Shown piece by piece: positions 5,637 to 63,715 of a stretch of 64,000 nucleotides of DNA (the stretch's first letter is position 1; each line of letters begins with the position of its first letter). Location: the sequence record PQ362703.1. One strand, written 5' to 3'. Made by a program: the position numbers and the translations under genes. The notes beneath the pieces were generated by a model. The model was not told the origin of the DNA and made no database searches. It saw only the letters and a list, made by a program, of their open reading frames with translations. The DNA is from Escherichia phage vB_EcoP_PW8.

Positions 5637-5858
5637 ATGCTGTTCAGCACTAATTATGGAATCTGCCCAATCTGTAAGAAAGGAAGAGGAGTTGCTAATC
5701 ATAAGAAGTGTAGTCGTATCCTACAGAAACAACGGAACCAGAAGGAATGGGATAAGATACTGGAAAATCAGCACAAAGATGAGTTCAAGGAGACAGCTAT
5801 TAAAGCATCTACTCAGCTTATTCGTCGTACTAACTTCATAGAAGGCTACCAGAAATGA
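5637..5858 (+). CDS. small protein with CxxC pair (possible Zn-ribbon)
   Basis: 73-aa ORF, TAAGGAG RBS; N-terminal CPICKK...C. Confidence 0.5.
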   Translation: MLFSTNYGICPICKKGRGVANHKKCSRILQKQRNQKEWDKILENQHKDEFKETAIKASTQLIRRTNFIEGYQK

Positions 5859-7095: not shown

Positions 7096-7911
7096 ATGTA
7101 CTCATCTATTGAACATCAGAAGCAGCTCGAAAAACTATTCAATAAAAATCAGCTCTTGCCTCGCATGAGGAAGGAATTCGAGGACTCCGAAGAAATTGAC
7201 TTTAAGGCTTTTGCTGCCTATTTAGAAATTGATTATAAGCTGCTCATTGATGCAATGGTGCAGATTGCCCTACATAAACGTGCTGACATCCAAACTATGA
7301 TTGGCTCTCTCATGAGTCATTCAGATGATGCTCAGTATATCGCTGACTGTCTGTATAAGATGGCAGAGAATGACTGCTTCAACTATGACCCTACCATCGA
7401 CAAGTTCGGTGTTATTTATGAGATTAGTGAAGATGTACAGATGGAACTGGAAGCATTCCAGTACCCATTGCCTATCGTAAGTGCTCCTAAGCCTGTTAAG
7501 TGTAACCGTGATACTGGTTACTACGAAAGCAGAGGTAGCATCATCCTCAAGAAGAACCATCATGAGATGGATGTCTGTCTTGACCATATCAACCGTATGA
7601 ACAATCAACGTCTCTGCATTAACTGGGACGTTGCTAACTATGTAAAAGACTCCCGTCCTAACATGGATAAACCCAAAGAGGGTGAAACCCGTCAGGACTA
7701 CGAGAAGCGTGTTAAAGCCTTTGAGAAGTACAGCCGTACAGCTAAGGAAGTAATGGAGCTAGTGACCAAAGAAGGTAATAACTTCTCCTTGGCTCATCGT
7801 TACGATAAGAGAGGACGCACTTACTGTTCCGGATATCATATATCCTATCAAGGCACTTCCTATAACAAAGCTGTTATTGAATTTGCAGACAAAGAACTAG
7901 TAGAGGACTAA
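7096..7911 (+). CDS. phage RNA polymerase II small subunit (N4 gp15-like; N-terminal part of a T7-like single-subunit RNAP)
   Basis: 271 aa, matching the size of N4 RNAPII small subunit (established knowledge); sits upstream of the ORF carrying the T7-RNAP catalytic motifs. Confidence 0.55.
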   Translation: MYSSIEHQKQLEKLFNKNQLLPRMRKEFEDSEEIDFKAFAAYLEIDYKLLIDAMVQIALHKRADIQTMIGSLMSHSDDAQYIADCLYKMAENDCFNYDPTIDKFGVIYEISEDVQMELEAFQYPLPIVSAPKPVKCNRDTGYYESRGSIILKKNHHEMDVCLDHINRMNNQRLCINWDVANYVKDSRPNMDKPKEGETRQDYEKRVKAFEKYSRTAKEVMELVTKEGNNFSLAHRYDKRGRTYCSGYHISYQGTSYNKAVIEFADKELVED

Positions 7912-8417
7912 TGAAACCAACTCAAGCAGAGTTGATGGAACTAATCGACTATGGCCCAGTGAATGGAACATTTCATTGGACTCATAGTCCATTGGTGTAC
8001 ATCAACGTAAGAGGTAAGGAGACTGGCTTATCAGGCTCCAGAGGACATCGAAAGATTGTCATTAATAAACAGGAATACAAGGCTCATCACGTAGCCTGGT
8101 GTATCATGACTGGTTCATGGCCTGAACAGGTGGATCATAATGATACAAACCGGGCCAACAACCGTTGGAATAACCTACGTGAGGCAACTCATGCACAGAA
8201 CATGTGCAATAGAACCATGAACAAGAATAACACTTCTGGATTTAAAGGTGTGCGTATTCGTAATGGTAAATACTTAGCCCAAATTCAAGTCAAAGGCACC
8301 AAAATAGCATTAGGTTCATTCACTGATCCAGTGGATGCTGCTAAGGCTTATGATGCTGCCGCAATTAAATACTTTGGTGAGTTCGCCAAAACAAACAAAG
8401 AACTCAATAACTATTAA
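7911..8417 (+). CDS. free-standing HNH homing endonuclease with AP2-like DNA-binding domain
   Basis: HHVAW...VDHNDTNRANNRWNNLREATHAQN HNH motif plus C-terminal AP2-like block ...AAKAYDAAAIKYFGEFAKTN; paralog of the 29675 ORF; inserted between the two RNAP subunit genes. Confidence 0.75.
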   Translation: MKPTQAELMELIDYGPVNGTFHWTHSPLVYINVRGKETGLSGSRGHRKIVINKQEYKAHHVAWCIMTGSWPEQVDHNDTNRANNRWNNLREATHAQNMCNRTMNKNNTSGFKGVRIRNGKYLAQIQVKGTKIALGSFTDPVDAAKAYDAAAIKYFGEFAKTNKELNNY

Positions 8418-8461: not shown

Positions 8462-9679
8462 ATGCAACTGTTAACCGCTCGTGAATACCTGAAAGTAGAT
8501 ATCGCCAATTCTTATGGCTTGGATAAAAAGACATGGGATGAACGTATTGCTTGGTTTGATGAGAACGAAGCTAACCTGCTTAATCTGGTAGATGAAGCTG
8601 AAGATTCTGCTCTGTTCTTTGCTGGTGTAAACGCATGGAAAGATATGAAAGCAGGTAAACCTATTGGTTATGCCGTAGCTCTTGATGCTACATCATCTGG
8701 CTTGCAGTTACTGGCCTGCCTGACTGGTGACCGTTCTGCTGCTGAACTGTGTAACGTAGTTAACTACATGGGCGAGAATGGTAAGCCATTACGTCGTGAT
8801 GCTTATACAGTCATCTATCACAAGATGCTGGACATCCTTGGTGAAGCATCCCGTATTAAACGTAGTGACACTAAGCAGGCAGTTATGACTGCATTCTATG
8901 GTTCAGAAGCCAAGCCTAAAGAAGTATTCGGTGAAGGTATTCGTCTCAAGACTTTTGAGAATGTAATGGAAACTGTTGCTAGTGGTCCTTGGGCACTTAA
9001 CAAGTTCTTACTGCAATGTGGTAATCCAGATGCCAACCGTTATGTATGGGTACTTCCTGACAACTTCCACGCTGTCATTAAGGTCATGATTCCAGAAGTA
9101 CAGACTGTTAACTTCTTAGGTAAGCCATTTGACATCACTCGTATGGTTCAAGGTACTGAAGAGAAGACCCGTATGCTCTCTGCTAACATCACCCACTCTA
9201 TTGATGGAATGGTGGTACGTGAGATGCTGCGTCGTTGTAACTTCGACATGAACCAGATGAGCTATGTTAAGGCTCTTTGTGAGGGAACTGGTGAATACAC
9301 GGTAGGTTCTGATGATAATTATGAAATGGTTAATACACTATGGACTAGTTATGAGAAGTCTGGATTCCTGTCTACCCGTATCTTTGATTATCTGGACTCA
9401 GAAACCATTGCATTGGTAGATACAGATGTAATCTTAGCTATGCTCAATACTATGCCTAAGAAGCCATTCCCTGTAATGACTGTACATGACTGCTTCCGTT
9501 GCCATCCTAACTACGGTAATGACCTACGTCGTCAGTACAATCAGATTCTGTCCGACATTGCTAAGAGTGACCTACTGGGTTTCATCCTGTCTCAGGTACT
9601 AGGACAAGAGTTCTCTGCTGGTAAGCTGGATGACAGCCTCTGGCAGGACATTCTTGAAACAGACTATGCGTTGAGTTAA
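8462..9679 (+). CDS. phage RNA polymerase II large subunit (N4 gp16-like, T7-like RNAP catalytic part)
   Basis: T7-RNAP-like motif A LDATSSGLQ, motif B RSDTKQAVMTAFYGS, motif C VHDCF; track ORF 8435 (GTG) trimmed to ATG at Met10 with AAGGA RBS. Confidence 0.75.
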   Translation: MQLLTAREYLKVDIANSYGLDKKTWDERIAWFDENEANLLNLVDEAEDSALFFAGVNAWKDMKAGKPIGYAVALDATSSGLQLLACLTGDRSAAELCNVVNYMGENGKPLRRDAYTVIYHKMLDILGEASRIKRSDTKQAVMTAFYGSEAKPKEVFGEGIRLKTFENVMETVASGPWALNKFLLQCGNPDANRYVWVLPDNFHAVIKVMIPEVQTVNFLGKPFDITRMVQGTEEKTRMLSANITHSIDGMVVREMLRRCNFDMNQMSYVKALCEGTGEYTVGSDDNYEMVNTLWTSYEKSGFLSTRIFDYLDSETIALVDTDVILAMLNTMPKKPFPVMTVHDCFRCHPNYGNDLRRQYNQILSDIAKSDLLGFILSQVLGQEFSAGKLDDSLWQDILETDYALS

Positions 9680-9686
9680 TAAACTA

Positions 9687-9719
9687 GCCTCATTCCTTCG
9701 GGAGTGAGGCCTATTTTTT
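9687..9719 (+). terminator. rho-independent terminator (TTCG tetraloop)
   Basis: GCCTCATTCC-TTCG-GGAGTGAGGC followed by CTATTTTTTG. Confidence 0.7.
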
Positions 9720-9736
9720 GCTTGGAGGTAGCAACT

Positions 9737-9919
9737 ATGCTAATCAATTTTGAAGTAATCTTTCAGCTAATACTGATAGTTTTATCTGTACTGGTTCTGG
9801 CTACGATAATCCGTGCCCACAAATCTAAGTTTGCTTACTGCTACTATGGAGCATACTCACTTGGCTGTTTTGTAATAGCAGGATGGATAGCTTTTGCTAT
9901 CTACTGCGTAAACAACTAA
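9737..9919 (+). CDS. small two-TM membrane protein
   Basis: Track ORF 9704 starts inside the terminator; ATG at 9737 has GGAGGT RBS; hydrophobic. Confidence 0.45.
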   Translation: MLINFEVIFQLILIVLSVLVLATIIRAHKSKFAYCYYGAYSLGCFVIAGWIAFAIYCVNN

Positions 9920-9920
9920 C

Positions 9921-9946
9921 CCTCCTAACGGAGGATTTATTTTTTT
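9921..9946 (+). terminator. rho-independent terminator
   Basis: CCTCC-TAAC-GGAGG followed by ATTTATTTTTTT. Confidence 0.55.
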
Positions 9947-9993
9947 ACATGTCATGTATACTAATCCTGCTATTTACTTATGAGGAAATTGAT

Positions 9994-10827
9994 ATGCCAA
10001 CTTTGAAAGTAGGTTTTAACAAAACCACTAATGTTGTAACCGTACTGGATGCCGGTGGTTCTATCCCGGGTGGTTCCGTAGAAGTAGGAACCTTTGTACA
10101 CCCGGACGCCACTTACCCAGATAGCTTAGTTATCTTCCATGGTGTTCGTGATCTGCTGTATAAACGCTCTGCTAAAGATCCTAGTAAAGCAGGCTTCTGG
10201 CCTAACAATATCGTGGATATGCAGTCTATCTCTATTGATATGAAAGCTACCCCACGACTGACTATTGCTACTAAACTAGCTCGTGTAGTCTCCGCTATCG
10301 AAGGTGAAGACATCAACTGGCATGTTGATGTAGCGGGTGGCAAAGCACCATTTACTTATAAATGGCAGTTCAAAGCTGATACTGCTGGTGCAGCATTCGC
10401 TGATATTAGCTCCAGTACTAACCAATCAGCTGCTACTGCAACGCTGACCCTTAAAGGCGTAACAGCTGCTTCTGCTGGTACTTACAAAGTGATTGTTACT
10501 GATGCTAATGGAACCACGGTAGAAGATGAGTCACTGCTGGCTGTAGGCTACTACGAAGCAAGCTCTCTGGTAGCTACTCCTGCTTCACTGGATCTGTCTG
10601 TTGCTGCTGATATTACCGATGGCAAGACTGTAACCATTGTTGCTATGCCTGTTGGTTCTTCTTCTGGTGCTTTATCTATCAAGACTGCTCCAGAATCTGG
10701 TCGTGCTACAGCTACCATTGCTGGTAACGTACTGACAGTTAAGCCTGTGGCTGCTGGCGATGCTACTTCTGTAGTAGTTACCAACGGTACTGTCGATGTA
10801 ACTATCCCTATTACTGTTGCAGAATAA
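9994..10827 (+). CDS. Ig-like (Big_2-type) domain protein, candidate capsid decoration protein (N4 gp17-like position)
   Basis: Track ORF 9883 trimmed to ATG Met38 with GAGGAAA RBS; Ala/Thr/Val/Gly-rich beta-strand repeats such as ATATLTLKGVTAASAGTYKVIVTDANGTT; follows the RNAPII genes as N4 gp17 does. Confidence 0.55.
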   Translation: MPTLKVGFNKTTNVVTVLDAGGSIPGGSVEVGTFVHPDATYPDSLVIFHGVRDLLYKRSAKDPSKAGFWPNNIVDMQSISIDMKATPRLTIATKLARVVSAIEGEDINWHVDVAGGKAPFTYKWQFKADTAGAAFADISSSTNQSAATATLTLKGVTAASAGTYKVIVTDANGTTVEDESLLAVGYYEASSLVATPASLDLSVAADITDGKTVTIVAMPVGSSSGALSIKTAPESGRATATIAGNVLTVKPVAAGDATSVVVTNGTVDVTIPITVAE

Positions 10828-10877
10828 GGGTATTCTTTGTTTGGGGTTATAAACCCTGAAATAAAACTCCCAAGTTT

Positions 10878-10907
10878 GACCTCCCTATTGAAGGGAGGTC
10901 TTTTTTT
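10878..10907 (+). terminator. rho-independent terminator
   Basis: GACCTCCC-TATTGAA-GGGAGGTC followed by TTTTTTT. Confidence 0.75.
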
Positions 10908-10932
10908 GACTTAAAAATCCTGGAGCCAGGAA

Positions 10933-11121
10933 ATGTATAAAGAAATTGCATTCTTCTCGTTCTTACTTGGTGGTTTGATAGGTGCAGGATTTGTAGCTAT
11001 TTCTAATACCTACTTTGGTTCTACCCCAAACTCTGTAACACAAACCCTCAAGCATGAATGTGAATTGAATATCCCTCGTAATCAAAACTGTGTAATGCAG
11101 TTCATACCGGAGAAGAGATGA
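10933..11121 (+). CDS. small membrane protein
   Basis: 62-aa ORF, hydrophobic N-terminal segment. Confidence 0.45.
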   Translation: MYKEIAFFSFLLGGLIGAGFVAISNTYFGSTPNSVTQTLKHECELNIPRNQNCVMQFIPEKR

Positions 11122-11303
11122 AATTAACCCAGTCCCAGATTATTTTCCTTCGCATGGTTCAAGGTGGTTCTGCCACCAGCAACCGTAATAACAAAACTGC
11201 ACAGTCTCTTAAGAAACTGGGCTTAGTACAGTTCAATACTGGTCTTGGGTGGTCATTAACCCCTATCGGTGTACTTCAACTCAGTGAAATGAAAGGTAAC
11301 TAA
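11118..11303 (+). CDS. hypothetical protein
   Basis: 61-aa ORF, overlapping start/stop. Confidence 0.45.
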   Translation: MKLTQSQIIFLRMVQGGSATSNRNNKTAQSLKKLGLVQFNTGLGWSLTPIGVLQLSEMKGN

Positions 11304-11633
11304 ATGAAAACTTTACTTAAAGGTGTTGCTGTAGCTGCACTGATAGCTTTGGTTCCAAATGCACAGGCAATTAAACCAGAACCAATTCTGGAAGGTGCTC
11401 AGGCTTACCTGGATGACACTCGTGATGCGTTCGGACAAGGATTCTTCATGGGCAGTATGATCTCTTACATCGAGAACACTAATAACTGTGTTCCTGAAGG
11501 TATTAAGTATTCAGTCATTCTGCCTAAGATTGCCAAAGTAGTTATTTACGACTCTGCAATCCTCAAGATGAAGAATACATCTCAAATTGTTGTGTACTCA
11601 GTACACAAGGCATACCCCTGCACCAAATCTTAA
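11304..11633 (+). CDS. secreted/periplasmic protein with signal peptide
   Basis: N-terminal MKTLLKGVAVAALIALVPNAQA signal-peptide-like segment. Confidence 0.55.
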   Translation: MKTLLKGVAVAALIALVPNAQAIKPEPILEGAQAYLDDTRDAFGQGFFMGSMISYIENTNNCVPEGIKYSVILPKIAKVVIYDSAILKMKNTSQIVVYSVHKAYPCTKS

Positions 11634-11667
11634 TCAGTAATTCCATTAGCTTTAGGAGAGTAAGTAA

Positions 11668-11874
11668 ATGGCAAGCATCGACTCCTTGACTGTATGTAAT
11701 TCACGTCAAGCTCGTAACTTTATTATCCGTGCCCTGAAAGCAGGTAACGTACCGTTCCTGACTTCATCACCAGGCATGGGTAAATCTGCAATTATTCGTT
11801 CTATTGCAGAAGAATTTGGTATGAAGCTGATAGACCATCGTCTGTCTACTTCTGCCCCGGAAGACCTTAACTAA
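11668..11874 (+). CDS. MoxR-like AAA+ ATPase, exon 1 (Walker A); ORF stop at 11872 lies inside a putative intron
   Basis: Walker A SSPGMGKS; ORF ends after 68 aa but the ATPase continues in ORF 12743..13588. Confidence 0.6.
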   Translation: MASIDSLTVCNSRQARNFIIRALKAGNVPFLTSSPGMGKSAIIRSIAEEFGMKLIDHRLSTSAPEDLN

Positions 11875-12745
11875 TAGGGCTTTGTGAGGGTGACCTCACA
11901 TCGAAAGCTATCTAAATGGGGAAACTCCTACTATTACAGGGAAACCATGATACACTCTGGTTTCCCAATAGAGGACAATCCCATGCTAAATATTAATGAA
12001 AGTTGGAAAGACATTGTTGGTTATGAAGGTTACTACGAAGTCTCTACGCATGGTCGTGTTAGAAATACCCATACAGGTATGATAAAGAACCAATGTGTAC
12101 AGACTAGCGGCAAGTATCTACAAGTTAGTTTGTGGAAAGGCAACAAAGAAAAAAGATGTTTAGTACATCGCTTAGTTGCTATAGCCTTCATTCCTAACCC
12201 CGAAGACAAGCCTCAAGTAAACCATTTAGACAAAAATGATAAGAACAACCATGTTCAAAATTTGGAATGGGTAACCATATCCGAGAATCATTTACATGCA
12301 TTTGCTAATGGTAGAAAAGGCTCCAAATCCCGACTAGGTGAAAAAACTAGTAAAGCCTCTCAGTATCGATATGTGTACTGGGATACCAAAAGAGCTGTTT
12401 GGAAAGCATCTATAAAGATAGACGGCAAAACAGTAAACATTGGTAGATTCAATACTGACCTAGAAGCAGCTTTAGCCGCTGATGAGGCAATTGATTCCTG
12501 GGGCTGGGATAGAATTAAAAACTTTCAATAATTAAATGCCTAACGACTATCGAAAACACGTAGTGATACGGAAGTGAGTAGAGTAGGGTGCAAGCCAATG
12601 GCACTCGAAAAGATAGCCACCCGGACAGGTAAAGCTGAGGGTGTTGATATAGTCTGGTCTGCGTAGTAATACGTAGCTGTATATGTCCAACTCGCATATA
12701 CGGGTAGAGCCTTGCAAACTCTACTGAACATAACGTAGTGGTTTG
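11869..12745 (+). mobile_element. putative group I intron carrying an HNH homing endonuclease ORF (boundaries approximate)
   Basis: Splits the ATPase between Walker A and Walker B; begins CTT|AACTAATAGGGC like the second intron; 3' part has stem-loops and blocks AACGACTATC, GAGTAGGG, GATATAGTCTGG shared with the intron at 33690. Confidence 0.55.
11983..12531 (+). CDS. intron-encoded HNH homing endonuclease
   Basis: WKDIVGYEGYYEVSTHGRV N-terminal module, HNH block QVNHLDKNDKNNHVQNLEWVT, C-terminal AP2-like block; track ORF 11884 trimmed to Met34 with AGAGGA RBS. Confidence 0.65.
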   Translation: MLNINESWKDIVGYEGYYEVSTHGRVRNTHTGMIKNQCVQTSGKYLQVSLWKGNKEKRCLVHRLVAIAFIPNPEDKPQVNHLDKNDKNNHVQNLEWVTISENHLHAFANGRKGSKSRLGEKTSKASQYRYVYWDTKRAVWKASIKIDGKTVNIGRFNTDLEAALAADEAIDSWGWDRIKNFQ

Positions 12746-13588
12746 CCATTCCGTAATGGTGACCGTGCAGAGTTTATTCCATTCGCTGACTTATTTCCCA
12801 TTGAGGGAGACGAAGTACCCGAAGGTTATAATGGCTGGCTCCTGTTCCTTGATGAGTTCAACTCAGCTAGGAAAGAAGTGGTAGCTGCTGCATACAAACT
12901 GATTCTCGACCGTATGACTGGTCAGAAAAAACTTCATCCCAATGTGATGATTGTTTGTGCTGGTAACAAAGCTACCGACCGTGCAATTGTTAACCCACTA
13001 GGTACTGCAATGCAGTCTCGTGTGGTTCACTTTGAAATGGAACTTAACTTCGACATCTTCGTTGAAGACGTAATGATTCCACAACAATGGGATGAACGTC
13101 TGGTTGCATTTCTACATGCTAACCCTGGCTATCTGCACGACTTCGACCCTGCTCATAAGAACAAAACATTCTGTTGTCCTCGTACCTGGGACTTTGTTAA
13201 CAAAGATCTCAAGAACCAACCAGAAGGTGCATTGCCTGACGAGGATTCCCTGTACTACAGTGGATTTGTTACACCAGGTAAGGCTGTAGAGTTTGTTCAG
13301 TTCACCCAGGTGTACAATCGTATCATTACGATCGAAAAGGTAGTCAAAGACCCATTGGGCTGTGCACTACCAGAAGATAACAACCTGTGCTGGGCTACCG
13401 TTAACCACTTGGCTAACAAAACTACTGAAGAGAACTTCGCTGATGTTCTTCAGTACATTGAACGCTTTAAAACGTTCACTCATAAGATTCTGTACTTCCG
13501 TACAGTAGGCAGAGCATTGCCAGAACTTCAGGCTACCCCTGAATGGCGTAAGGCTGCTGCTAATATCTCTCGTTACATTCACGGATAA
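12743..13588 (+). CDS. MoxR-like AAA+ ATPase, exon 2 (Walker B onward); true exon start about 12746
   Basis: Walker B LLFLDEFNSA; the track's TTG start is probably an artefact of the intron. Confidence 0.6.
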   Translation: MPFRNGDRAEFIPFADLFPIEGDEVPEGYNGWLLFLDEFNSARKEVVAAAYKLILDRMTGQKKLHPNVMIVCAGNKATDRAIVNPLGTAMQSRVVHFEMELNFDIFVEDVMIPQQWDERLVAFLHANPGYLHDFDPAHKNKTFCCPRTWDFVNKDLKNQPEGALPDEDSLYYSGFVTPGKAVEFVQFTQVYNRIITIEKVVKDPLGCALPEDNNLCWATVNHLANKTTEENFADVLQYIERFKTFTHKILYFRTVGRALPELQATPEWRKAAANISRYIHG

Positions 13589-15283: not shown

Positions 15284-15493
15284 ATGTCAGTATTTCAAGT
15301 AACTCATGCAACCTCAGATGTACGCTTAACCATTAATGCTGCAAATGTAATTGCAGTAGAACAGATTCCACAGTCTGACCATGCACGCGTCATATTTGTA
15401 GATAATAACTATATAGAAACCAAAGAAACCTATCGTTCAGTACGCAATTACCTGAAGAAAGCTCTTACACCTGCAAGCAAAGACTCTGAGTAA
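15284..15493 (+). CDS. hypothetical protein
   Basis: 69-aa ORF with AAGGA RBS. Confidence 0.45.
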   Translation: MSVFQVTHATSDVRLTINAANVIAVEQIPQSDHARVIFVDNNYIETKETYRSVRNYLKKALTPASKDSE

Positions 15494-15504
15494 GTAGCTG
15501 CCTA

Positions 15505-15530
15505 AATAGCCCAACTATGTTGGGCTATTT
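15505..15530 (+). terminator. hairpin / weak terminator
   Basis: AATAGCCCAA-CTATG-TTGGGCTATT 10-bp stem, short T tail. Confidence 0.4.
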
Positions 15531-15566: not shown

Positions 15567-15809
15567 ATGGAATCTTTAGCAGCAATCCTTGTTATGTTAT
15601 TTGTATTAGCTGTATACCTTATCCCTACTATCATTGCTTTTTCACGAGGCCATGTCTCTAAGTGGGGCATTGGTGTGCTTAATATCGTATTAGGCTGGTC
15701 TTTAGTCTTCTGGGTAGTAGCACTGATTTGGTCACTGTCCAACAAAGGTCAGAACCAGGTTACGAATGTAACTGTTGTTCAAACCAATGGTGGCAGTAAA
15801 GCAGAGTAA
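15567..15809 (+). CDS. superinfection-immunity-like small membrane protein
   Basis: Two TM segments with GHVSKWGIGVLNIVLGWSLVFWVVALIWSL, resembling the Imm superinfection immunity family; ATG at Met13 with AGGAA RBS. Confidence 0.5.
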   Translation: MESLAAILVMLFVLAVYLIPTIIAFSRGHVSKWGIGVLNIVLGWSLVFWVVALIWSLSNKGQNQVTNVTVVQTNGGSKAE

Positions 15810-15884
15810 CTAATCTAAGCATCATTACATAGTGGTGCTTGTGGAAGTTGCTTCCAGCTCATTGCTTATCCATCTCCTAACCCA

Positions 15885-15910
15885 AGCCCACCTAACCCGT
15901 GGGCTTTTTT
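15885..15910 (+). terminator. rho-independent terminator
   Basis: AGCCCAC-CTAACCC-GTGGGCT followed by TTTTTT. Confidence 0.7.
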
Positions 15911-18206: not shown

Positions 18207-18513
18207 CCCTGAAGTAATTCATAGTAAAACCGGTAAAGCTGTCCCACTTAGTGAGATTGCAGTAACTGGGGATATTGCTGCTTGCCCAGCAAACATTGCC
18301 TCTCTATGTATGTGCATTGCTGCACTGGCAGAGGAACGTAAGTTATGGCTGGAGCCAAGCAAGGAAATGGTTCTAGCTGGTATGGCTGAACTGAATGCAC
18401 TTCTGAAAGAAATGTATGACGAGAATGGTCAATTAGTTGAACCAACTGATGACCAAATTTCAGACGCTGTAGTATTTGTCCTTCAAGCAATGGCAGGTAA
18501 ACGTAATGGTTAA
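18199..18513 (+). CDS. hypothetical protein
   Basis: Track ORF 18151 trimmed to ATG Met17 with GGAG RBS. Confidence 0.45.
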   Translation: MINPEVIHSKTGKAVPLSEIAVTGDIAACPANIASLCMCIAALAEERKLWLEPSKEMVLAGMAELNALLKEMYDENGQLVEPTDDQISDAVVFVLQAMAGKRNG

Positions 18514-18718
18514 ATTTAAACCTGGTGATGTGTTCTATGATTCAAAAAATAAATGTCATTTTGTTTTGGAACTGGAGCTTAGAGTACTGGAATCTTTCTG
18601 TGTAAGAATGCTTACCAAAAACAATAATTTATATGGAAAACCTCTGACACTGGTAGGTTATAACCACCTAGAACTTTCACGATTCACATTAGTGGGACGC
18701 AAAGCAGTAATCAAATAA
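18506..18718 (+). CDS. hypothetical protein
   Basis: Track ORF 18476 (TTG) trimmed to ATG Met11. Confidence 0.4.
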   Translation: MVKFKPGDVFYDSKNKCHFVLELELRVLESFCVRMLTKNNNLYGKPLTLVGYNHLELSRFTLVGRKAVIK

Positions 18719-29674: not shown

Positions 29675-30172
29675 ATGAAACAGAGGATTGCCCATGACAG
29701 GCTTTTACAGCTTGTTAGTTATGACCCTATTTCCGGAATTTTTACTCGTAGGAATACTGGGAAGGTATCCGGTTACCTAATGAAGAGTGGCTACACTCAG
29801 CTCCGTGTGGATAGCGTGTTGTACTATGGGCATATCCTTGCATGGTTCTATGTGCATGGCGTATGGCCTACGGATAGGATTGACCATAAGGACAATATAC
29901 GCCATCACAACTGGATAGATAACCTCAGAGAAGCGACCCACAAGCAGAATAACCAGAGTGCTGTTTTATCTAAAACAAACACATCTGGATTTAAGGGGGT
30001 ATCCTTTTCAAAGAATTTAGGTAAATACAGAGCAACTATTTGGGTTAACAGCAAACCAATTACATTAGGTTTCACAGATGACCCAAGAGAAGCTGCTGTT
30101 CTCTATGATGAAGCTGCTATAACTCATTATGGTGAGTTTGCTAAAACTAATAAGCAATTGGGACTGTTATGA
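29675..30172 (+). CDS. free-standing HNH homing endonuclease with AP2-like domain
   Basis: HILAW...IDHKDNIRHHNWIDNLREATHKQN and C-terminal AP2-like block; paralog of ORF 7911. Confidence 0.75.
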   Translation: MKQRIAHDRLLQLVSYDPISGIFTRRNTGKVSGYLMKSGYTQLRVDSVLYYGHILAWFYVHGVWPTDRIDHKDNIRHHNWIDNLREATHKQNNQSAVLSKTNTSGFKGVSFSKNLGKYRATIWVNSKPITLGFTDDPREAAVLYDEAAITHYGEFAKTNKQLGLL

Positions 30173-33355: not shown

Positions 33356-33691
33356 ATGACCGAAGTAATTCCCAATGATATGAACACTCAGCTAATCCTG
33401 ATTGCAGGATTCTCAGCGAGTGGTAAATCAGCATCACTGCGTAACATCCGGAACCAGGAACGCTGGCTCTATCTGAATACTGAAGCAGGTAAACGTCTGC
33501 CTTTCCGTAACAAATTCAATACCTACAACATTGAAGACCCATACCAGATTTGGGAAGCATTTGATGTTGCATCTCCTGGTGGAGAAATGGCAGATGATGT
33601 TGATGGTATCATTATTGACTCAGCAACCTTTATGATGGACATGCTGGAATCTCAGTATGTATTACCCTCTGCAAACACGCAAAAGGCTTAA
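33356..33691 (+). CDS. Sak4-like (AAA_24-type) ATPase, exon 1; ORF stop lies inside a putative intron
   Basis: Walker A GFSASGKS and Walker B GIIIDSATF; reading frame resumes after the HEG in ORF 34461. Confidence 0.5.
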   Translation: MTEVIPNDMNTQLILIAGFSASGKSASLRNIRNQERWLYLNTEAGKRLPFRNKFNTYNIEDPYQIWEAFDVASPGGEMADDVDGIIIDSATFMMDMLESQYVLPSANTQKA

Positions 33692-34488
33692 CTACTAAGG
33701 CCCGTTAGTCAGTAATGATTAACGATAACTGATTGAATTCAGGGAAACCCCTAACGTAAAGACGAGGGCAATCCTGAGCCAAGACTTAATCTTTCTCCGG
33801 TTTTTATTAACGGAGTTACAAACATGAGTAAGAAAAGATTCGGTAATGAATTACATCCTCTGTATTACACATGGTTAACCATTAAACAGAGATGCGATAA
33901 CCCTAAGCACGCTAGTTACAAAAACTATGGGGCTAGGGGGATAACTAGAGCAGAAGAGTTCTCTGACTTCAAAGTGTTTGCTGCCTATCTAGAATCATTA
34001 GATGGTTACGCAGACAGGGAGAGACTGGGTCTTACTTTAGATAGAATAGATGGTTCACTTGGCTATGTGCCAGGAAATCTGAGATGGGCAACTAGAACAA
34101 CTCAGGCCATTAATTCCAGAAAAAGAAGAACCAGTAAAGCTACCTACTTAGGTATAGGTTTAAACACCACTAAGAAAAAATGGTCAGCAAGAATCTGCAA
34201 TGGTAATGAAAGAATCTTTGTAGGTAATTTTGATTCCGAGATTGAAGCTCTGGAAGCTAGAAATGCCTACATTATTGAGCATGGATTACCTCATGCCATT
34301 CAAAAGATTAAGTAAGGTGCAACGACTATCCAGTAATGGAGTAGGGCAGAAGCTAATGCTGCTCGAAGCGGTCAGCATCCTATCGTAATTAACGAGGATG
34401 AAGATATAGTCTGGACTGCATGGAAACATGCAGATGCAGGTAATGCTGCTGGGAGTGTAGTTGCGTACGCTCTTGAACGTATCGTGGG
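33690..34488 (+). mobile_element. putative group I intron carrying a homing-endonuclease-like ORF (boundaries approximate)
   Basis: Begins CTT|AACTACTAAGGCC; shares blocks AACGACTATC, GGAGTAGGG, GATATAGTCTGG and 3' end ...ATCGTG with the intron at 11869. Confidence 0.5.
33824..34315 (+). CDS. intron-encoded homing-endonuclease-like protein (degenerate HNH_3 plus AP2-like domain)
   Basis: RIDGSLGYVPGNLRWATRTTQ resembles HNH_3 core; C-terminal AP2-like block YLGIGLNTTKKKWSARI...FDSEIEALEARNAYI. Confidence 0.55.
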   Translation: MSKKRFGNELHPLYYTWLTIKQRCDNPKHASYKNYGARGITRAEEFSDFKVFAAYLESLDGYADRERLGLTLDRIDGSLGYVPGNLRWATRTTQAINSRKRRTSKATYLGIGLNTTKKKWSARICNGNERIFVGNFDSEIEALEARNAYIIEHGLPHAIQKIK

Positions 34489-34904
34489 GGGATTTTGCAC
34501 AGTTCTTTAAGATACTGCTGCAACAGAAAGTCGTTAAGTTTGGTAAGCCAGTAATCATTACTGCTCATGCTAAAGACGAACTGGATGAAGCTGCTGGTGT
34601 GATGAAAACATTCATCCCAGTGAAAGGTTCCCTTAAGAATAACGGACTTGAAGCCTACTTCTCTACAGTGGTTTACGCAGAACGTGTAGACATCAAAGAA
34701 CTGGAGAAGTACGGAAACAAGATGTTAGAAATTACGGAAGAAGAACGTGACTTAGGATATAAGCACGTATTCCAGACCCGTCCAACCAAGAAGTCTGTTG
34801 GTAAACGACTTCGTTCCCCTATGGGTATGTTCGATAAGTCCGAGACTTACATTGATAACGATGCCCAGAAACTATTAGACCATCTGGCTGAATACTACGC
34901 TTAA
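34461..34904 (+). CDS. Sak4-like ATPase, exon 2 (true exon start about 34485-34491)
   Basis: C-terminal half of a ~245-aa AAA_24-like protein; the track's TTG start is probably an artefact of the intron. Confidence 0.5.
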   Translation: MRTLLNVSWGDFAQFFKILLQQKVVKFGKPVIITAHAKDELDEAAGVMKTFIPVKGSLKNNGLEAYFSTVVYAERVDIKELEKYGNKMLEITEEERDLGYKHVFQTRPTKKSVGKRLRSPMGMFDKSETYIDNDAQKLLDHLAEYYA

Positions 34905-36925: not shown

Positions 36926-37464
36926 CAACAACAACAACCGAACCAGTGGACTTTAATACTCTCCGAAGTCCATTGGTTCAATCTAAACTAAGCGGAAAAG
37001 TTAGCTTTTTCTTGGGTGTAGAACCTGTTGTAGAAAATAAATTATTCCGTAGTGAGTAGTTAATATCGTAAATGATTCTGTTAGAATCCTTTGAGATAGG
37101 AACTCCTATCATAACCTTTCTTAACTTAATCTTTGCCGTATGGCACTGACGCTAGGGGTGGCCCCCCATCCGTCAGGTAGACTATTTTAAGAATGGGTTA
37201 TCTCAGAAAATGTAAAGCAACATTCGGGTTAATCAATGGCCTCTCCCTATAGGGGCCATTTCTGAATCTTAGGCTATATCCCAAAGGTTAGTATCTTTGG
37301 GATAAGGCTTCAGATCCCTTATCAACTAACGCTCATGTTGAGCAAAACATTAACCAATAATGTCGGATAGTTCATTAAGCTATTCATCCAGCATCGAGAT
37401 GTTAGGTCTTACATGCAATATAGGGTATAAAGGGAGGACTCGTCCCCTCCCTCTTATTATAATG

Positions 37465-37534
37465 GTCGGGGTATCACGTAGGCATGTGTAGAAGGTCGCT
37501 ACTTCTCCCGCTGGTTCTAATCCAGCCCCCGACC
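37465..37534 (+). tRNA. tRNA-like element (atypical: short variable loop, weak D stem)
   Basis: 7-bp acceptor GTCGGGG/CCCCGAC, anticodon stem AGAAG/CTTCT with loop GTCGCTA, T arm GCTGG-TTCTAAT-CCAGC. Confidence 0.3.
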
Positions 37535-38322
37535 TACTGACATCCTATCAATGAGTACATTAAGCTAACGTGCGGAGGTTTACACTGTAGCCGGTGTAGG
37601 TGGAGAAGACGGCAGGATAGCTACCTGTGCTTAGTGTACTCTTTGATAGGTTGTGCTATCAAAGTCCAGACGATACCTGAGTGACTTTAAAAACAGATGG
37701 AGCCAGGTGGAATCCCTGGCAATTAATTCAAAGTAGCATTGTACTAATCCATCCCGGAGTTCAAAGGCCAATCATGGAGCAGTGCTACTCTGAATTAGAA
37801 GAATTAAGACGGGTCTGGTGAAGTAGATGGGGTTCGATTCCCTCCGGTAGAGTAATCTACTAGCGTGCTTGGTGCACGAATAAGACTTAATACTGGTGGT
37901 TTGATTCCATCCCCCGTCATCCGAAGTCGCCAGGTACTTATGGCAAACGGGTAGTAACGAACTGGTCATTCGTCAAACGCCCACCTAATTACGAGTCAGC
38001 AAGAACGCCTTCACTTAAACTTAAACAAAAAAGCTTAACGCAATAATTATGTAGGGGTATGTAAGGATTGCGAAGAAGGAGCCAGTTAAAGCCTGGCATG
38101 ACTCACCTAATTGAGGCTGTACTTATGTTCTACAGTAGGTGCACAACACTGGGCTGCTACACCCAGAGGTACAGCCTCACCCTATTACGGGCAATTTAGC
38201 TTAACCTAGTTAAGTAGGTATCATGATTCATTGCTGTAAAATGAGGCTCTTATCAAGCCTCTTCAGACACAGAATCAAGTAAGCTAATGTTGTGGGTATC
38301 TCACAACATGCCCTCCCAATAA

Positions 38323-38398
38323 TACCCGGTAGGCTTAGTGGTAAAGCCCCACTAGTAAACCAGCTAGGACGCAGGTTCGAATCCTGTCCGGGTAACCA
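38323..38398 (+). tRNA. tRNA-like gene with encoded CCA; anticodon arm atypical
   Basis: Acceptor TACCCGG/CCGGGTA, D arm GGCT-TAGTGGTAA-AGCC, T arm GCAGG-TTCGAAT-CCTGT, 3' ACCA; anticodon region folds only as a 4-bp stem with an 8-nt loop. Confidence 0.45.
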
Positions 38399-38403
38399 TT
38401 TAT

Positions 38404-38477
38404 GCCCACTTAGCTTAGACGGGGAAAGCAACCGACTAATAATCGGAAGGTCACTGGTTCAAATCCAGTAGTGGGTA
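38404..38477 (+). tRNA. tRNA gene, apparent anticodon AAU (unusual; assignment uncertain)
   Basis: Acceptor GCCCACT/AGTGGGT, D arm GCTT-AGACGGGGA-AAGC, anticodon stem (A)CCGA/TCGG(A) with loop CTAATAA, T arm ACTGG-TTCAAAT-CCAGT. Confidence 0.5.
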
Positions 38478-38714
38478 CTCATTTAGCAGTAACATAGTCC
38501 TGATTGCATTGCACTCTAAAGACAACACTGGTAAGACAGTCCAGTGGCTGCTATTGTATTGATATTCCCCTCGACGGGAATTTCGCTAGTGAAGGTAACA
38601 CTTAAAAATCCAAACCCACGTCTTACTACTATCGGGCTATCAACCCATGGTCGCTTAACACACTAGTGATAGTAGTTTGACGGACTAGCCTCGTTAGCTG
38701 CGTTAAAGCTACTA

Positions 38715-63160: not shown

Positions 63161-63401
63161 CCTTTGGACGGAATCGTATCAATCTGCCTATGATGTTTAA
63201 GGCAAACAGTGCGATTGCAATATTGGAACCCTGAGGAATATCTTCCAGGATATGTCGAGGTAGTCCTGTCAGCATTGGTTGGATAATATCTATGGCAGAA
63301 AACAAAATTAAACCTAATGTACTAATCTGAACGGATGCCCACTTCCAGCATCTTTTCCAGTTAGGTACTAGCTCTACCTTTCTTTTTAACCTGCGAACCA
63401 T
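63141..63401 (-). CDS. holin (two TM segments; possibly pinholin given SAR endolysin)
   Basis: Track ORF 63141..63467 trimmed to Met23 with GGGAG RBS; two hydrophobic helices; immediately upstream of endolysin. Confidence 0.5.
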   Translation of the reverse strand: MVRRLKRKVELVPNWKRCWKWASVQISTLGLILFSAIDIIQPMLTGLPRHILEDIPQGSNIAIALFALNIIGRLIRFRPKDDSHES

Positions 63402-63715
63402 GTGAATATCTCCCGTCTTGCAGCAGCCAATACACCAATAATTGCACCTGCCCCAGCCCATACCCACTTACCGAAAATCCCAGCACCAACAACTTTATGC
63501 TTAATGGTAATGAACTCTTCAATAGTAGGTTCATTCTTAGCTAAGCTATCCTCCACATTTTTAAGTCTATTACCTATGTCATTGATTGAATTCCGTAGCT
63601 CTGACAGAGTCTCCTCCAGTTTCTCACGGTCCTGTCTGTCTCTTGTCTGGTTCTCAAACAGAGTCTTCAATCGTTCCTCTAGCCTGACTAGGAGCAGTTC
63701 ACCTGATTCATTCAT
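63386..63715 (-). CDS. membrane protein with C-terminal TM segment (lysis-associated?)
   Basis: 109-aa ORF; coiled-coil-like N-terminus and C-terminal VVGAGIFGKWVWAGAGAIIGVLAAA. Confidence 0.45.
   Translation of the reverse strand: MNESGELLLVRLEERLKTLFENQTRDRQDREKLEETLSELRNSINDIGNRLKNVEDSLAKNEPTIEEFITIKHKVVGAGIFGKWVWAGAGAIIGVLAAARREIFTWFAG

Follow-up and report, generated by a model that had tools for sequence, protein, structure and literature searches.

A hypervariable exported protein with a predicted Rap1a/Tai4a fold, and an Imm homologue, in the middle-gene region of a Gamaleyavirus coliphage

Introduction

Do any of the small membrane and secreted proteins encoded behind the RNA polymerase II (RNAP II) genes of an N4-like coliphage guard the envelope of the infected cell and, if so, which? 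The question is raised by a 64,000-nucleotide stretch of Escherichia phage vB_EcoP_PW8 (sequence record PQ362703.1), referred to below, in its entirety, as the window. A first-pass annotation singled out four open reading frames (ORFs) between positions 9737 and 11633, and a fifth at 15567, as candidates for superinfection exclusion or envelope remodelling. Two of these genes carry the argument presented here: gp17.3, which encodes an exported protein with a predicted resemblance to bacterial immunity proteins, and gp27.1, a homologue of the T4 superinfection-immunity protein Imm. According to a 2025 preprint on N4 lysis, N4 still lacks a characterised superinfection-exclusion system, the discovery of which would be crucial for understanding its lysis inhibition (PMC12642591).

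The window is from a Gamaleyavirus, a G7C-like N4-type podophage of the Schitoviridae and a coliphage. By megablast, positions 9600-11700 matched 55 phage records, all of them Gamaleyavirus, at 81-94% identity; the best matches were the Escherichia phages nithesis, ECBP1, and St11Ph5 (92-94% DNA identity). Gene order is syntenic with G7C (gp15 - HNH - gp16 (RNAP II) - gp16.1 - gp17 - gp17.1 - gp17.2 - gp17.3 - gp24 - gp25 - gp26 - gp27 - gp27.1 - gp29 - gp30), which assigns the ORFs at 9737, 9994, 10933, 11304, and 15567 to gp16.1, gp17, gp17.1, gp17.3, and gp27.1, respectively, and places the cluster at the start of the middle-gene block. The ORF coordinates of the first-pass annotation were correct, and a fifth ORF of the cluster, gp17.2 (11118-11303), can be added to them. 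Since dN/dS (the ratio of nonsynonymous to synonymous substitution rates) against close relatives lies at 0.03-0.5 for all genes of the cluster and gp27.1, the flagged ORFs are real coding genes under purifying selection. The genes and hairpins of this region discussed below all lie on the + strand.

Export signal and predicted fold of gp17.3

The product of gp17.3 (11304-11633) is a protein of 109 residues which begins with a canonical Sec signal peptide, in keeping with its initial description as a signal-peptide protein. By hydropathy, this peptide (11304-11369) comprises classical n-, h-, and c-regions (MKTLLK, GVAVAALIALV, and PNAQA) with a cleavage site between AQA and the following isoleucine, and it is kept in all relatives. 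The mature domain extends from 11370 to 11630.

Rap1a (Pfam PF18602) is the only family matched consistently by diverse relatives of gp17.3 (15 of 15), with matches that are weak (best E 5.5e-5). Structural modelling was more informative only under certain conditions. A first AlphaFold2 model, signal peptide included, reached a predicted local distance difference test (pLDDT) score of 79 and returned noise in Foldseek, with Tai4 at a template modelling score (TM-score) of 0.52 and HdeA at 0.43. A usable model required both the removal of the signal peptide and the presence of distant relatives in the alignment. Built in this way, the mature protein was modelled as five helices, the fold expected of Rap1a, with a pLDDT of 93 and a predicted TM-score (pTM) of 0.84. 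Foldseek then ranked Rap1a/Tai4 entries first, at TM-scores of 0.56-0.65 versus at most 0.41 for all others. The fold of Spackle, the periplasmic exclusion protein of T4, was not found in gp17.3.

Rap1a (SMA2260) of Serratia marcescens and Tai4 of Agrobacterium tumefaciens, the 'Tai4a' class of PF18602, confer periplasmic immunity against the T6SS (type VI secretion system) peptidoglycan DL-endopeptidases Ssp1/Tae4. Rap1a carries a 26-residue signal peptide, forms a stable dimer, and sterically blocks the active site of Ssp1; its fold depends critically on a disulfide that joins Cys78, located in the alpha2-alpha3 loop, to Cys122, 44 residues further on and close to the C-terminus (PMC3852654). 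In gp17.3 two invariant cysteines are likewise separated by 44 residues, namely Cys62, which the model places in the alpha2-alpha3 loop, and Cys106, again close to the C-terminus. The phage protein further resembles Rap1a/Tai4 in its length (approximately 110 residues), its cleavable Sec signal peptide, and the sequence variability of its alleles. It differs in being confined to virulent N4-like phages, in having no effector or T6SS genes nearby, in its sub-threshold similarity, and in that the blocking glutamine is not evidently conserved. Taken together, these features make it very probable that gp17.3 adopts the Rap1a/Tai4a fold, and probable that it is a remote homologue of these proteins.

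A number of observations weigh against this assignment. Firstly, gp17.3 itself scores 15.5 bits against PF18602, below the cut-off of 27.7 (E 0.025); of the marks of the Rap1a/Tai4a family it lacks two, a score above this cut-off and a place beside an effector gene or in a T6SS cluster. Secondly, searches of PDB sequences with profiles and with single gp17.3-family sequences did not reach Rap1a or Tai4, and the Foldseek E-values, at 2-5, are not significant. Thirdly, Gln84 of Rap1a, which contacts the catalytic histidine, aligns by cysteine offset to a non-conserved Lys/Gln/Pro/Ser in the phage family. Finally, convergence can give rise to small helical bundles more than once. The resemblance to Rap1a might then be convergent, or ancestral without a shared activity, and gp17.3 and the small membrane proteins beside it would be accessory ORFs with an unrelated role, for instance that of an HdeA/YmgD-type chaperone. 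The sub-threshold sequence evidence and the failure to find a partner gene speak for this explanation, which we nevertheless hold to be unlikely: a putative disulfide matching in topology and spacing, combined with a signal peptide, is unlikely to arise by chance.

The labels 'Tai4' or 'Rap1a' are attached to gp17.3 in a few GenBank records from 2024-25, and a Rap1a-complex name to the metagenomic nr entry DAE39538.1, presumably by automated pipelines. In the literature that was searched, no paper linked Gamaleyavirus with Tai4 or Rap1a.

Distribution and allelic exchange of gp17.3

Homologues of gp17.3 are few and phage-borne. A word-indexed search recovered relatives at 86% identity or above only, and 1.84 billion representatives, searched exhaustively with a profile, yielded just eight clusters; the contigs on which relatives reside are all N4-like phage genomes or fragments. 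The gene was absent from the 5,426 E. coli genomes searched, and when 185,579 species genomes were scanned with the single protein, nothing but a spurious match to the signal peptide turned up.

Within its phages, gp17.3 is a hypervariable allelic cassette. Between the window and G7C its amino acid identity is 38%, as compared to 95% for gp17.1, 92% for gp17.2, 95% for gp25, and 94% for gp26. More generally, gp17.3 is 36-38% identical to its counterparts in G7C, AN24P2, and Jgk1, against 90-97% for gp17.1, gp17.2, gp25, and gp26 when compared to G7C and AN24P2; Jgk1 is more diverged than these two genome-wide. Nucleotide identity falls from approximately 95% to approximately 50% only inside the gp17.3 ORF (approximately 11330-11631) and returns to 93% directly after the stop codon. 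When 73 ORFs were compared across five complete genomes, gp17.3 was split between 97 and 90% identity on the one hand and 38, 37, and 36% on the other, a pattern which no other gene displayed. AN24P2 carries a gp17.3 allele of only 36% identity, although the rest of its genes mostly match those of the window at 85-100%.

The 56 matching records, mostly Gamaleyavirus, contain at least four allele classes, namely the window, G7C, G17/Moonfish, and Jgk1 types. Within classes dN/dS amounts to 0.08-0.23, while between classes dS is saturated, which indicates that the diversity of gp17.3 consists of old alleles swapped by recombination. The alleles are exchanged as a precise single-gene cassette, a behaviour characteristic of factors that determine specificity, immunity proteins among them. 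Ongoing positive selection was also considered as a source of this diversity; with pairwise dN/dS below 1 within classes and saturated dS between them, it is not demonstrable.

The Imm homologue gp27.1

At 15567-15809, 4 kb downstream of the gp17 cluster, gp27.1 encodes 80 residues with two predicted transmembrane (TM) helices (hydrophobic spans at residues 1-28 and 33-59) and contains LGWSLVFWVVALIW. Its description as an Imm-like gene was borne out with some margin. The Pfam family Imm_superinfect (PF14373) is matched at 60.0 bits, well above the cut-off of 27.9 (E 2e-16), over the full profile (positions 1-42 of 42), and PHROG phrog_1039, 'immunity to superinfection', is matched as well. 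By tblastn, 892 phage records were found, among them T-even-type phages with an annotated imm gene. Over 80 of 80 residues, gp27.1 is 38% identical (E 1e-13) to Imm of the T-even-type phage MN01, in which imm is situated between the genes for DNA polymerase and uvsX. At the level of sequence, gp27.1 is a true member of the T4 Imm family, although not a new one, as it is already annotated Imm-like in the G7C record. It is like T4 Imm in size, in its two TM helices, and in its family-model score, and differs in context: in an N4-like podophage it stands as a single gene, insulated by hairpins, with gp27 before it and gp29 after it.

The gene immediately upstream, gp27 (15284-15493, 69 residues), is unusually divergent within the genus, at 46-75% identity between members, as is gp16.1 (9737-9919, 60 residues; 54-64% to G7C). 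Both are small variable cassettes amid genes of at least 90% identity.

A proposed role in protecting the envelope

T4 pairs the membrane protein Imm with periplasmic Spackle, an inhibitor of the gp5 lysozyme of incoming phages (PMC7677548). In the phage of the window, gp27.1 and gp17.3 may both protect the envelope of the infected cell, a proposal to which we give an even chance. Residing in the inner membrane, gp27.1 would block DNA entry of later-arriving phages in the manner of T4 Imm. In the periplasm gp17.3, probably as a dimer, would act as a steric plug in the active site of a papain-like peptidoglycan endopeptidase (NlpC/P60/CHAP, Tae4-class) arriving from outside, much as Rap1a acts on Ssp1. 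The sacculus would thereby stay intact until the phage's own lysis programme. The likeliest targets of gp17.3 would be T6SS amidase effectors of the Tae4/Ssp1 class delivered by neighbouring gut enterobacteria, and the next possible ones the wall-degrading enzymes of competing phages; its deeply diverged alleles might correspond to different target specificities. The gut is the type of habitat that has yielded several of these phages, their sources being the feces of horses and cattle, duck, and pig-farm waste water.

Of the candidates originally put forward for exclusion or envelope remodelling, gp27.1 is retained through its family membership, gp17.3 is plausible through its predicted Rap1a/Tai4 fold, and gp17, a structural protein, drops out. 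As the G7C record lists no N4 counterparts for gp17.1-17.3 and gp27.1, the genus would have added these genes on its own. Ordinary phage gene content, annotated before, is represented by the Imm homologue, the decoration protein, and the small membrane ORFs. What is new here is the combination, in gp17.3, of a confident predicted fold assignment, a phage-only distribution, the absence of an effector, and a sharp allelic-cassette pattern.

Candidate targets of gp17.3

The phage itself was surveyed for an enzyme on which gp17.3 could act. A Pfam scan of the virion proteins gp51-gp55, gp57, and gp58 returned no domain and hence no hydrolase or amidase domain. In the endolysin region, Pfam reported a GH108 muramidase with PG_binding_3, as well as DUF7940 in gp62. 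An identity matrix against five genomes suggested that gp63 (the pinholin homologue) and the ORF at 5637-5858 co-vary with gp17.3. For gp63 the suggestion was rejected when a cross-tabulation of the records listed showed nine distinct phages (11 records) with B-type gp17.3 and window-type gp63, and two phages with A-type gp17.3 and the other gp63 class. As no phage-encoded partner of gp17.3 emerged, an external target is indicated.

An observation on gp63 may be added in its own right. The gene (63386-63715, - strand), a homologue of the N4 pinholin, occurs in Gamaleyavirus in two allele classes (91-97% and approximately 72-81% identity), which are independent of the gp17.3 alleles and which differ above all in the first 17 residues from the N-terminus, as well as elsewhere.

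One form that an external target might take is suggested by the bacterial counterparts of gp17.3. The virulent phage would carry an 'orphan' T6SS immunity gene, whose product neutralises Tae4/Ssp1-class amidases received from neighbours and so allows the host to survive until progeny release. This is a possibility that we advance only tentatively. The proposal of envelope protection as a whole faces the difficulties that no Tae4, NlpC/P60, or CHAP domain and no T6SS gene was found linked to gp17.3, that the endolysin of the phage is a GH108 muramidase, of another enzyme class than the papain-like endopeptidases, and, on the side of gp27.1, that the function of the Imm family has to our knowledge been demonstrated for T4 alone. 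If the T6SS-immunity reading were true, the alleles of gp17.3 would represent a phage-borne repertoire of immunity specificities.

The comparison with T4 invites a different account, in which the T6SS plays no part and gp17.3 is a Spackle-like exclusion factor, acting alongside gp27.1 on the virion peptidoglycan hydrolase of later phages. Like Spackle (gp61.3), gp17.3 is small, helical, signal-peptide-bearing, and, by prediction, periplasmic, and belongs to a virulent coliphage that also encodes Imm; the logic proposed for it, inhibition of an incoming wall hydrolase, is also the same. The pairing in T4 of membrane Imm with a helical periplasmic inhibitor bearing a signal peptide (PMC7677548, PMC7650644) sets a precedent, both gp17.3 and gp27.1 are additions of Gamaleyavirus without an N4 counterpart in the G7C record, and allelic diversity fits an arms race between phages. 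Self-exclusion would, however, be without an obvious target, given that the scanned virion proteins (gp51-gp58) have no Pfam hydrolase domain, and the alleles, as AN24P2 illustrates, vary independently of the remaining genome. We judge this account to be distinctly unlikely.

Enzymes already present in the infected cell might also be considered. Here gp17.3 would damp host NlpC/P60 endopeptidases (MepS/MepH class), or time lysis as a periplasmic anti-lysis factor. Its predicted periplasmic location and endopeptidase-inhibitor fold are compatible with such a role, as is the lysis inhibition of N4-type phages, the factors of which are not all identified (PMC12642591). The endolysin, however, is a muramidase rather than a papain-like amidase, the two classes of gp63 alleles do not track those of gp17.3, and alleles that are 36-44% divergent would not be expected if the target were a conserved host enzyme; an endogenous target appears very improbable.

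Should gp17.3 inhibit incoming wall hydrolases, phage infection would be linked to contact-dependent antagonism between bacteria, with the host being defended from T6SS attack. Alternatively, gp17.3 would be a second, structurally unrelated Spackle-like exclusion factor, serving N4-type phages. For exclusion, gp27.1 and gp17.3 are concrete candidates in the sister genus of N4.

The decoration protein and the small proteins of the cluster

The product of gp17 (9994-10827, 277 residues) had been described as an Ig-like decoration-type protein and, at the same time, listed among the exclusion or envelope candidates. The first description is apt. Over its full length it matches phrog_2973, 'Hoc-like head decoration' (E 3e-99), Ig domains are detected just under their thresholds (Ig_3 at 27.1 bits, cut-off 30; I-set at 22.1 bits), and relatives are annotated as capsid decorating or Hoc-like. 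It is also syntenic with gp17 of G7C, annotated as similar to the N4 32 kDa virion protein. The protein is orthologous to gp17 of N4, which decorates the capsid as a structural component of the virion, and as such it is no candidate for exclusion or envelope remodelling. In position, sequence (PHROG 2973), and Ig-like domain it resembles N4 gp17 and the T4 Hoc-type decoration proteins without notable difference. Hydropathy reveals no hydrophobic span in gp17, while it supports the TM or signal-peptide predictions for gp16.1, gp17.1, gp17.3, and gp27.1. The gene is variable within the genus, at 74-79% identity to G7C, and is replaced in phi G17 by one encoding a 413-residue protein.

The remaining proteins are shorter, and the hydropathy of gp16.1 and gp17.1 agrees with what had been proposed of these two. 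The first, gp16.1 (9737-9919, 60 residues; phrog_12530, E 8e-38), has two hydrophobic spans (residues 1-30 and 37-60), with means of up to 3.05 in a 19-residue Kyte-Doolittle window, and a positively charged RAHKSK loop between the two predicted TM helices; it is 54-64% identical in amino acids to its G7C orthologue (dN/dS 0.10-0.46). In gp17.1 (10933-11121, 62 residues; phrog_7508), a single N-terminal span at residues 4-25 is predicted to form a TM helix or an uncleaved signal anchor, and the C-terminal part (approximately 37 residues, with two cysteines) is probably periplasmic. This protein is highly conserved across the genus (95-97% amino acid identity, dN/dS 0.03-0.10) and was matched in 99 phage records, among which are N4-like phages of Klebsiella and Erwinia and, at 35-36% identity, the two 76-77 kb coliphages KBNP1711 and Bas87. 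For both gp16.1 and gp17.1 the evidence reaches no further than 'conserved small membrane protein'. The ORF not previously noted, gp17.2 (11118-11303, 61 residues; phrog_7665), encodes a soluble, basic protein with no hydrophobic span, conserved at 90-95%. It found no match in Pfam or the PDB; its sequence would be compatible with a small winged-helix protein, which is possible. NCBIfam and PADLOC gave no match for any of the six proteins considered here.

In some relatives, extra genes that do not occur in the window lie between gp17 and gp17.1 or gp24, making the gp17-gp24 interval a hotspot for accessory genes. St11Ph5 (L001, 7293-7607) encodes there an extra 104-residue protein annotated 'superinfection exclusion'; a 104-residue ORF at the corresponding slot of contig L009 (6380-6694) carries Pfam PF17420 (GP17). 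An additional HNH gene is also found among the extra genes of this interval.

Terminators and operon layout

In the first-pass annotation, the genes of the cluster were each bounded by strong terminators. This holds for gp16.1, gp17, and gp27.1, with the qualification that the hairpin downstream of gp16.1 is a weaker one, and does not hold for gp17.1, gp17.2, and gp17.3, none of which is followed by a hairpin.

Upstream of gp16.1, an intrinsic terminator 3' of the RNAP II subunit gene gp16 (9687-9710) consists of a 10-bp stem (-18.3 kcal/mol, z -5.7), after which comes TATTTTTT. The weak hairpin and T-run 3' of gp16.1 (9921-9934; -8.4 kcal/mol, z -3.5) coincides with a stem_loop annotated in G7C, and an intrinsic terminator follows gp17 (10878-10900; 9-bp stem, -17.1 kcal/mol, then TTTTTTT). 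On either side of gp27.1 are a strong hairpin without a clean T-run, between gp27 and gp27.1 (15503-15530; 13-bp stem, -17.4 kcal/mol, z -5.6), again at a site of an annotated G7C stem_loop, and a 3' intrinsic terminator (15884-15906; 8-bp stem, -12.5 kcal/mol, then TTTTTT).

No hairpin was found 3' of 11121, 11303, or 11633, and positions 11630-11670 fold at -2.5 kcal/mol (z = +0.25), no better than shuffles. The stops and starts of gp17.1, gp17.2, and gp17.3 overlap or abut, as ATGA (where gp17.2 starts within the stop of gp17.1) and TAAATG. Judged by this layout, the three genes are one translationally coupled cassette, reading on into gp24.

Other features of the window

A 70-residue ORF at 18506-18718 (+) has no tblastn match in five complete Gamaleyavirus genomes. 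Genes for tRNAs lie at 37464-37535, 38323-38395, and 38404-38478. ARAGORN calls a tRNA-Ala(cgc) and a tRNA-Ile(aat), of which Rfam reports the tRNA-Ile and not the tRNA-Ala, together with a second tRNA, at 38323-38395, which ARAGORN does not report.

Two probable free-standing homing-endonuclease genes were noted, both absent from nithesis and PE007. One, at 7911-8417, separates gp15 from gp16, which encode RNAP II subunits, and occupies the slot of the G7C HNH gene ST15.1, to which it is 40% identical; the other, at 29675-30172, is 96% identical to the G7C HNH endonuclease gp41.1.

Two further genes are interrupted. The ATPase gene gp24 (11668-13588) is split between a first exon ending ...APEDL at approximately 11868 and a second starting with SGLPFRNG at approximately 12737, where relatives have an intact gp24 of 350 residues. 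The insert of approximately 870 nucleotides contains a putative homing-endonuclease ORF (11884-12531) and a weak group I intron match (12387-12676; 25.6 bits, E 3e-4). In gp44 (Sak4-like / AAA ATPase; 33356-34904), exon 1 ends ...ANTQKA at approximately 33688 and exon 2 resumes with WGDFAQFF at approximately 34482. The Rfam group I intron match to this insert (33679-34433) scores 47.6 bits, under the gathering score of 50 (E 9e-11). A probable homing-endonuclease ORF within it (33824-34315) weakly resembles sequences of G7C and AN24P2 by tblastn; nithesis and PE007 lack it at this site. When joined, the gp44 exons yield the intact gp44 sequence of G7C.

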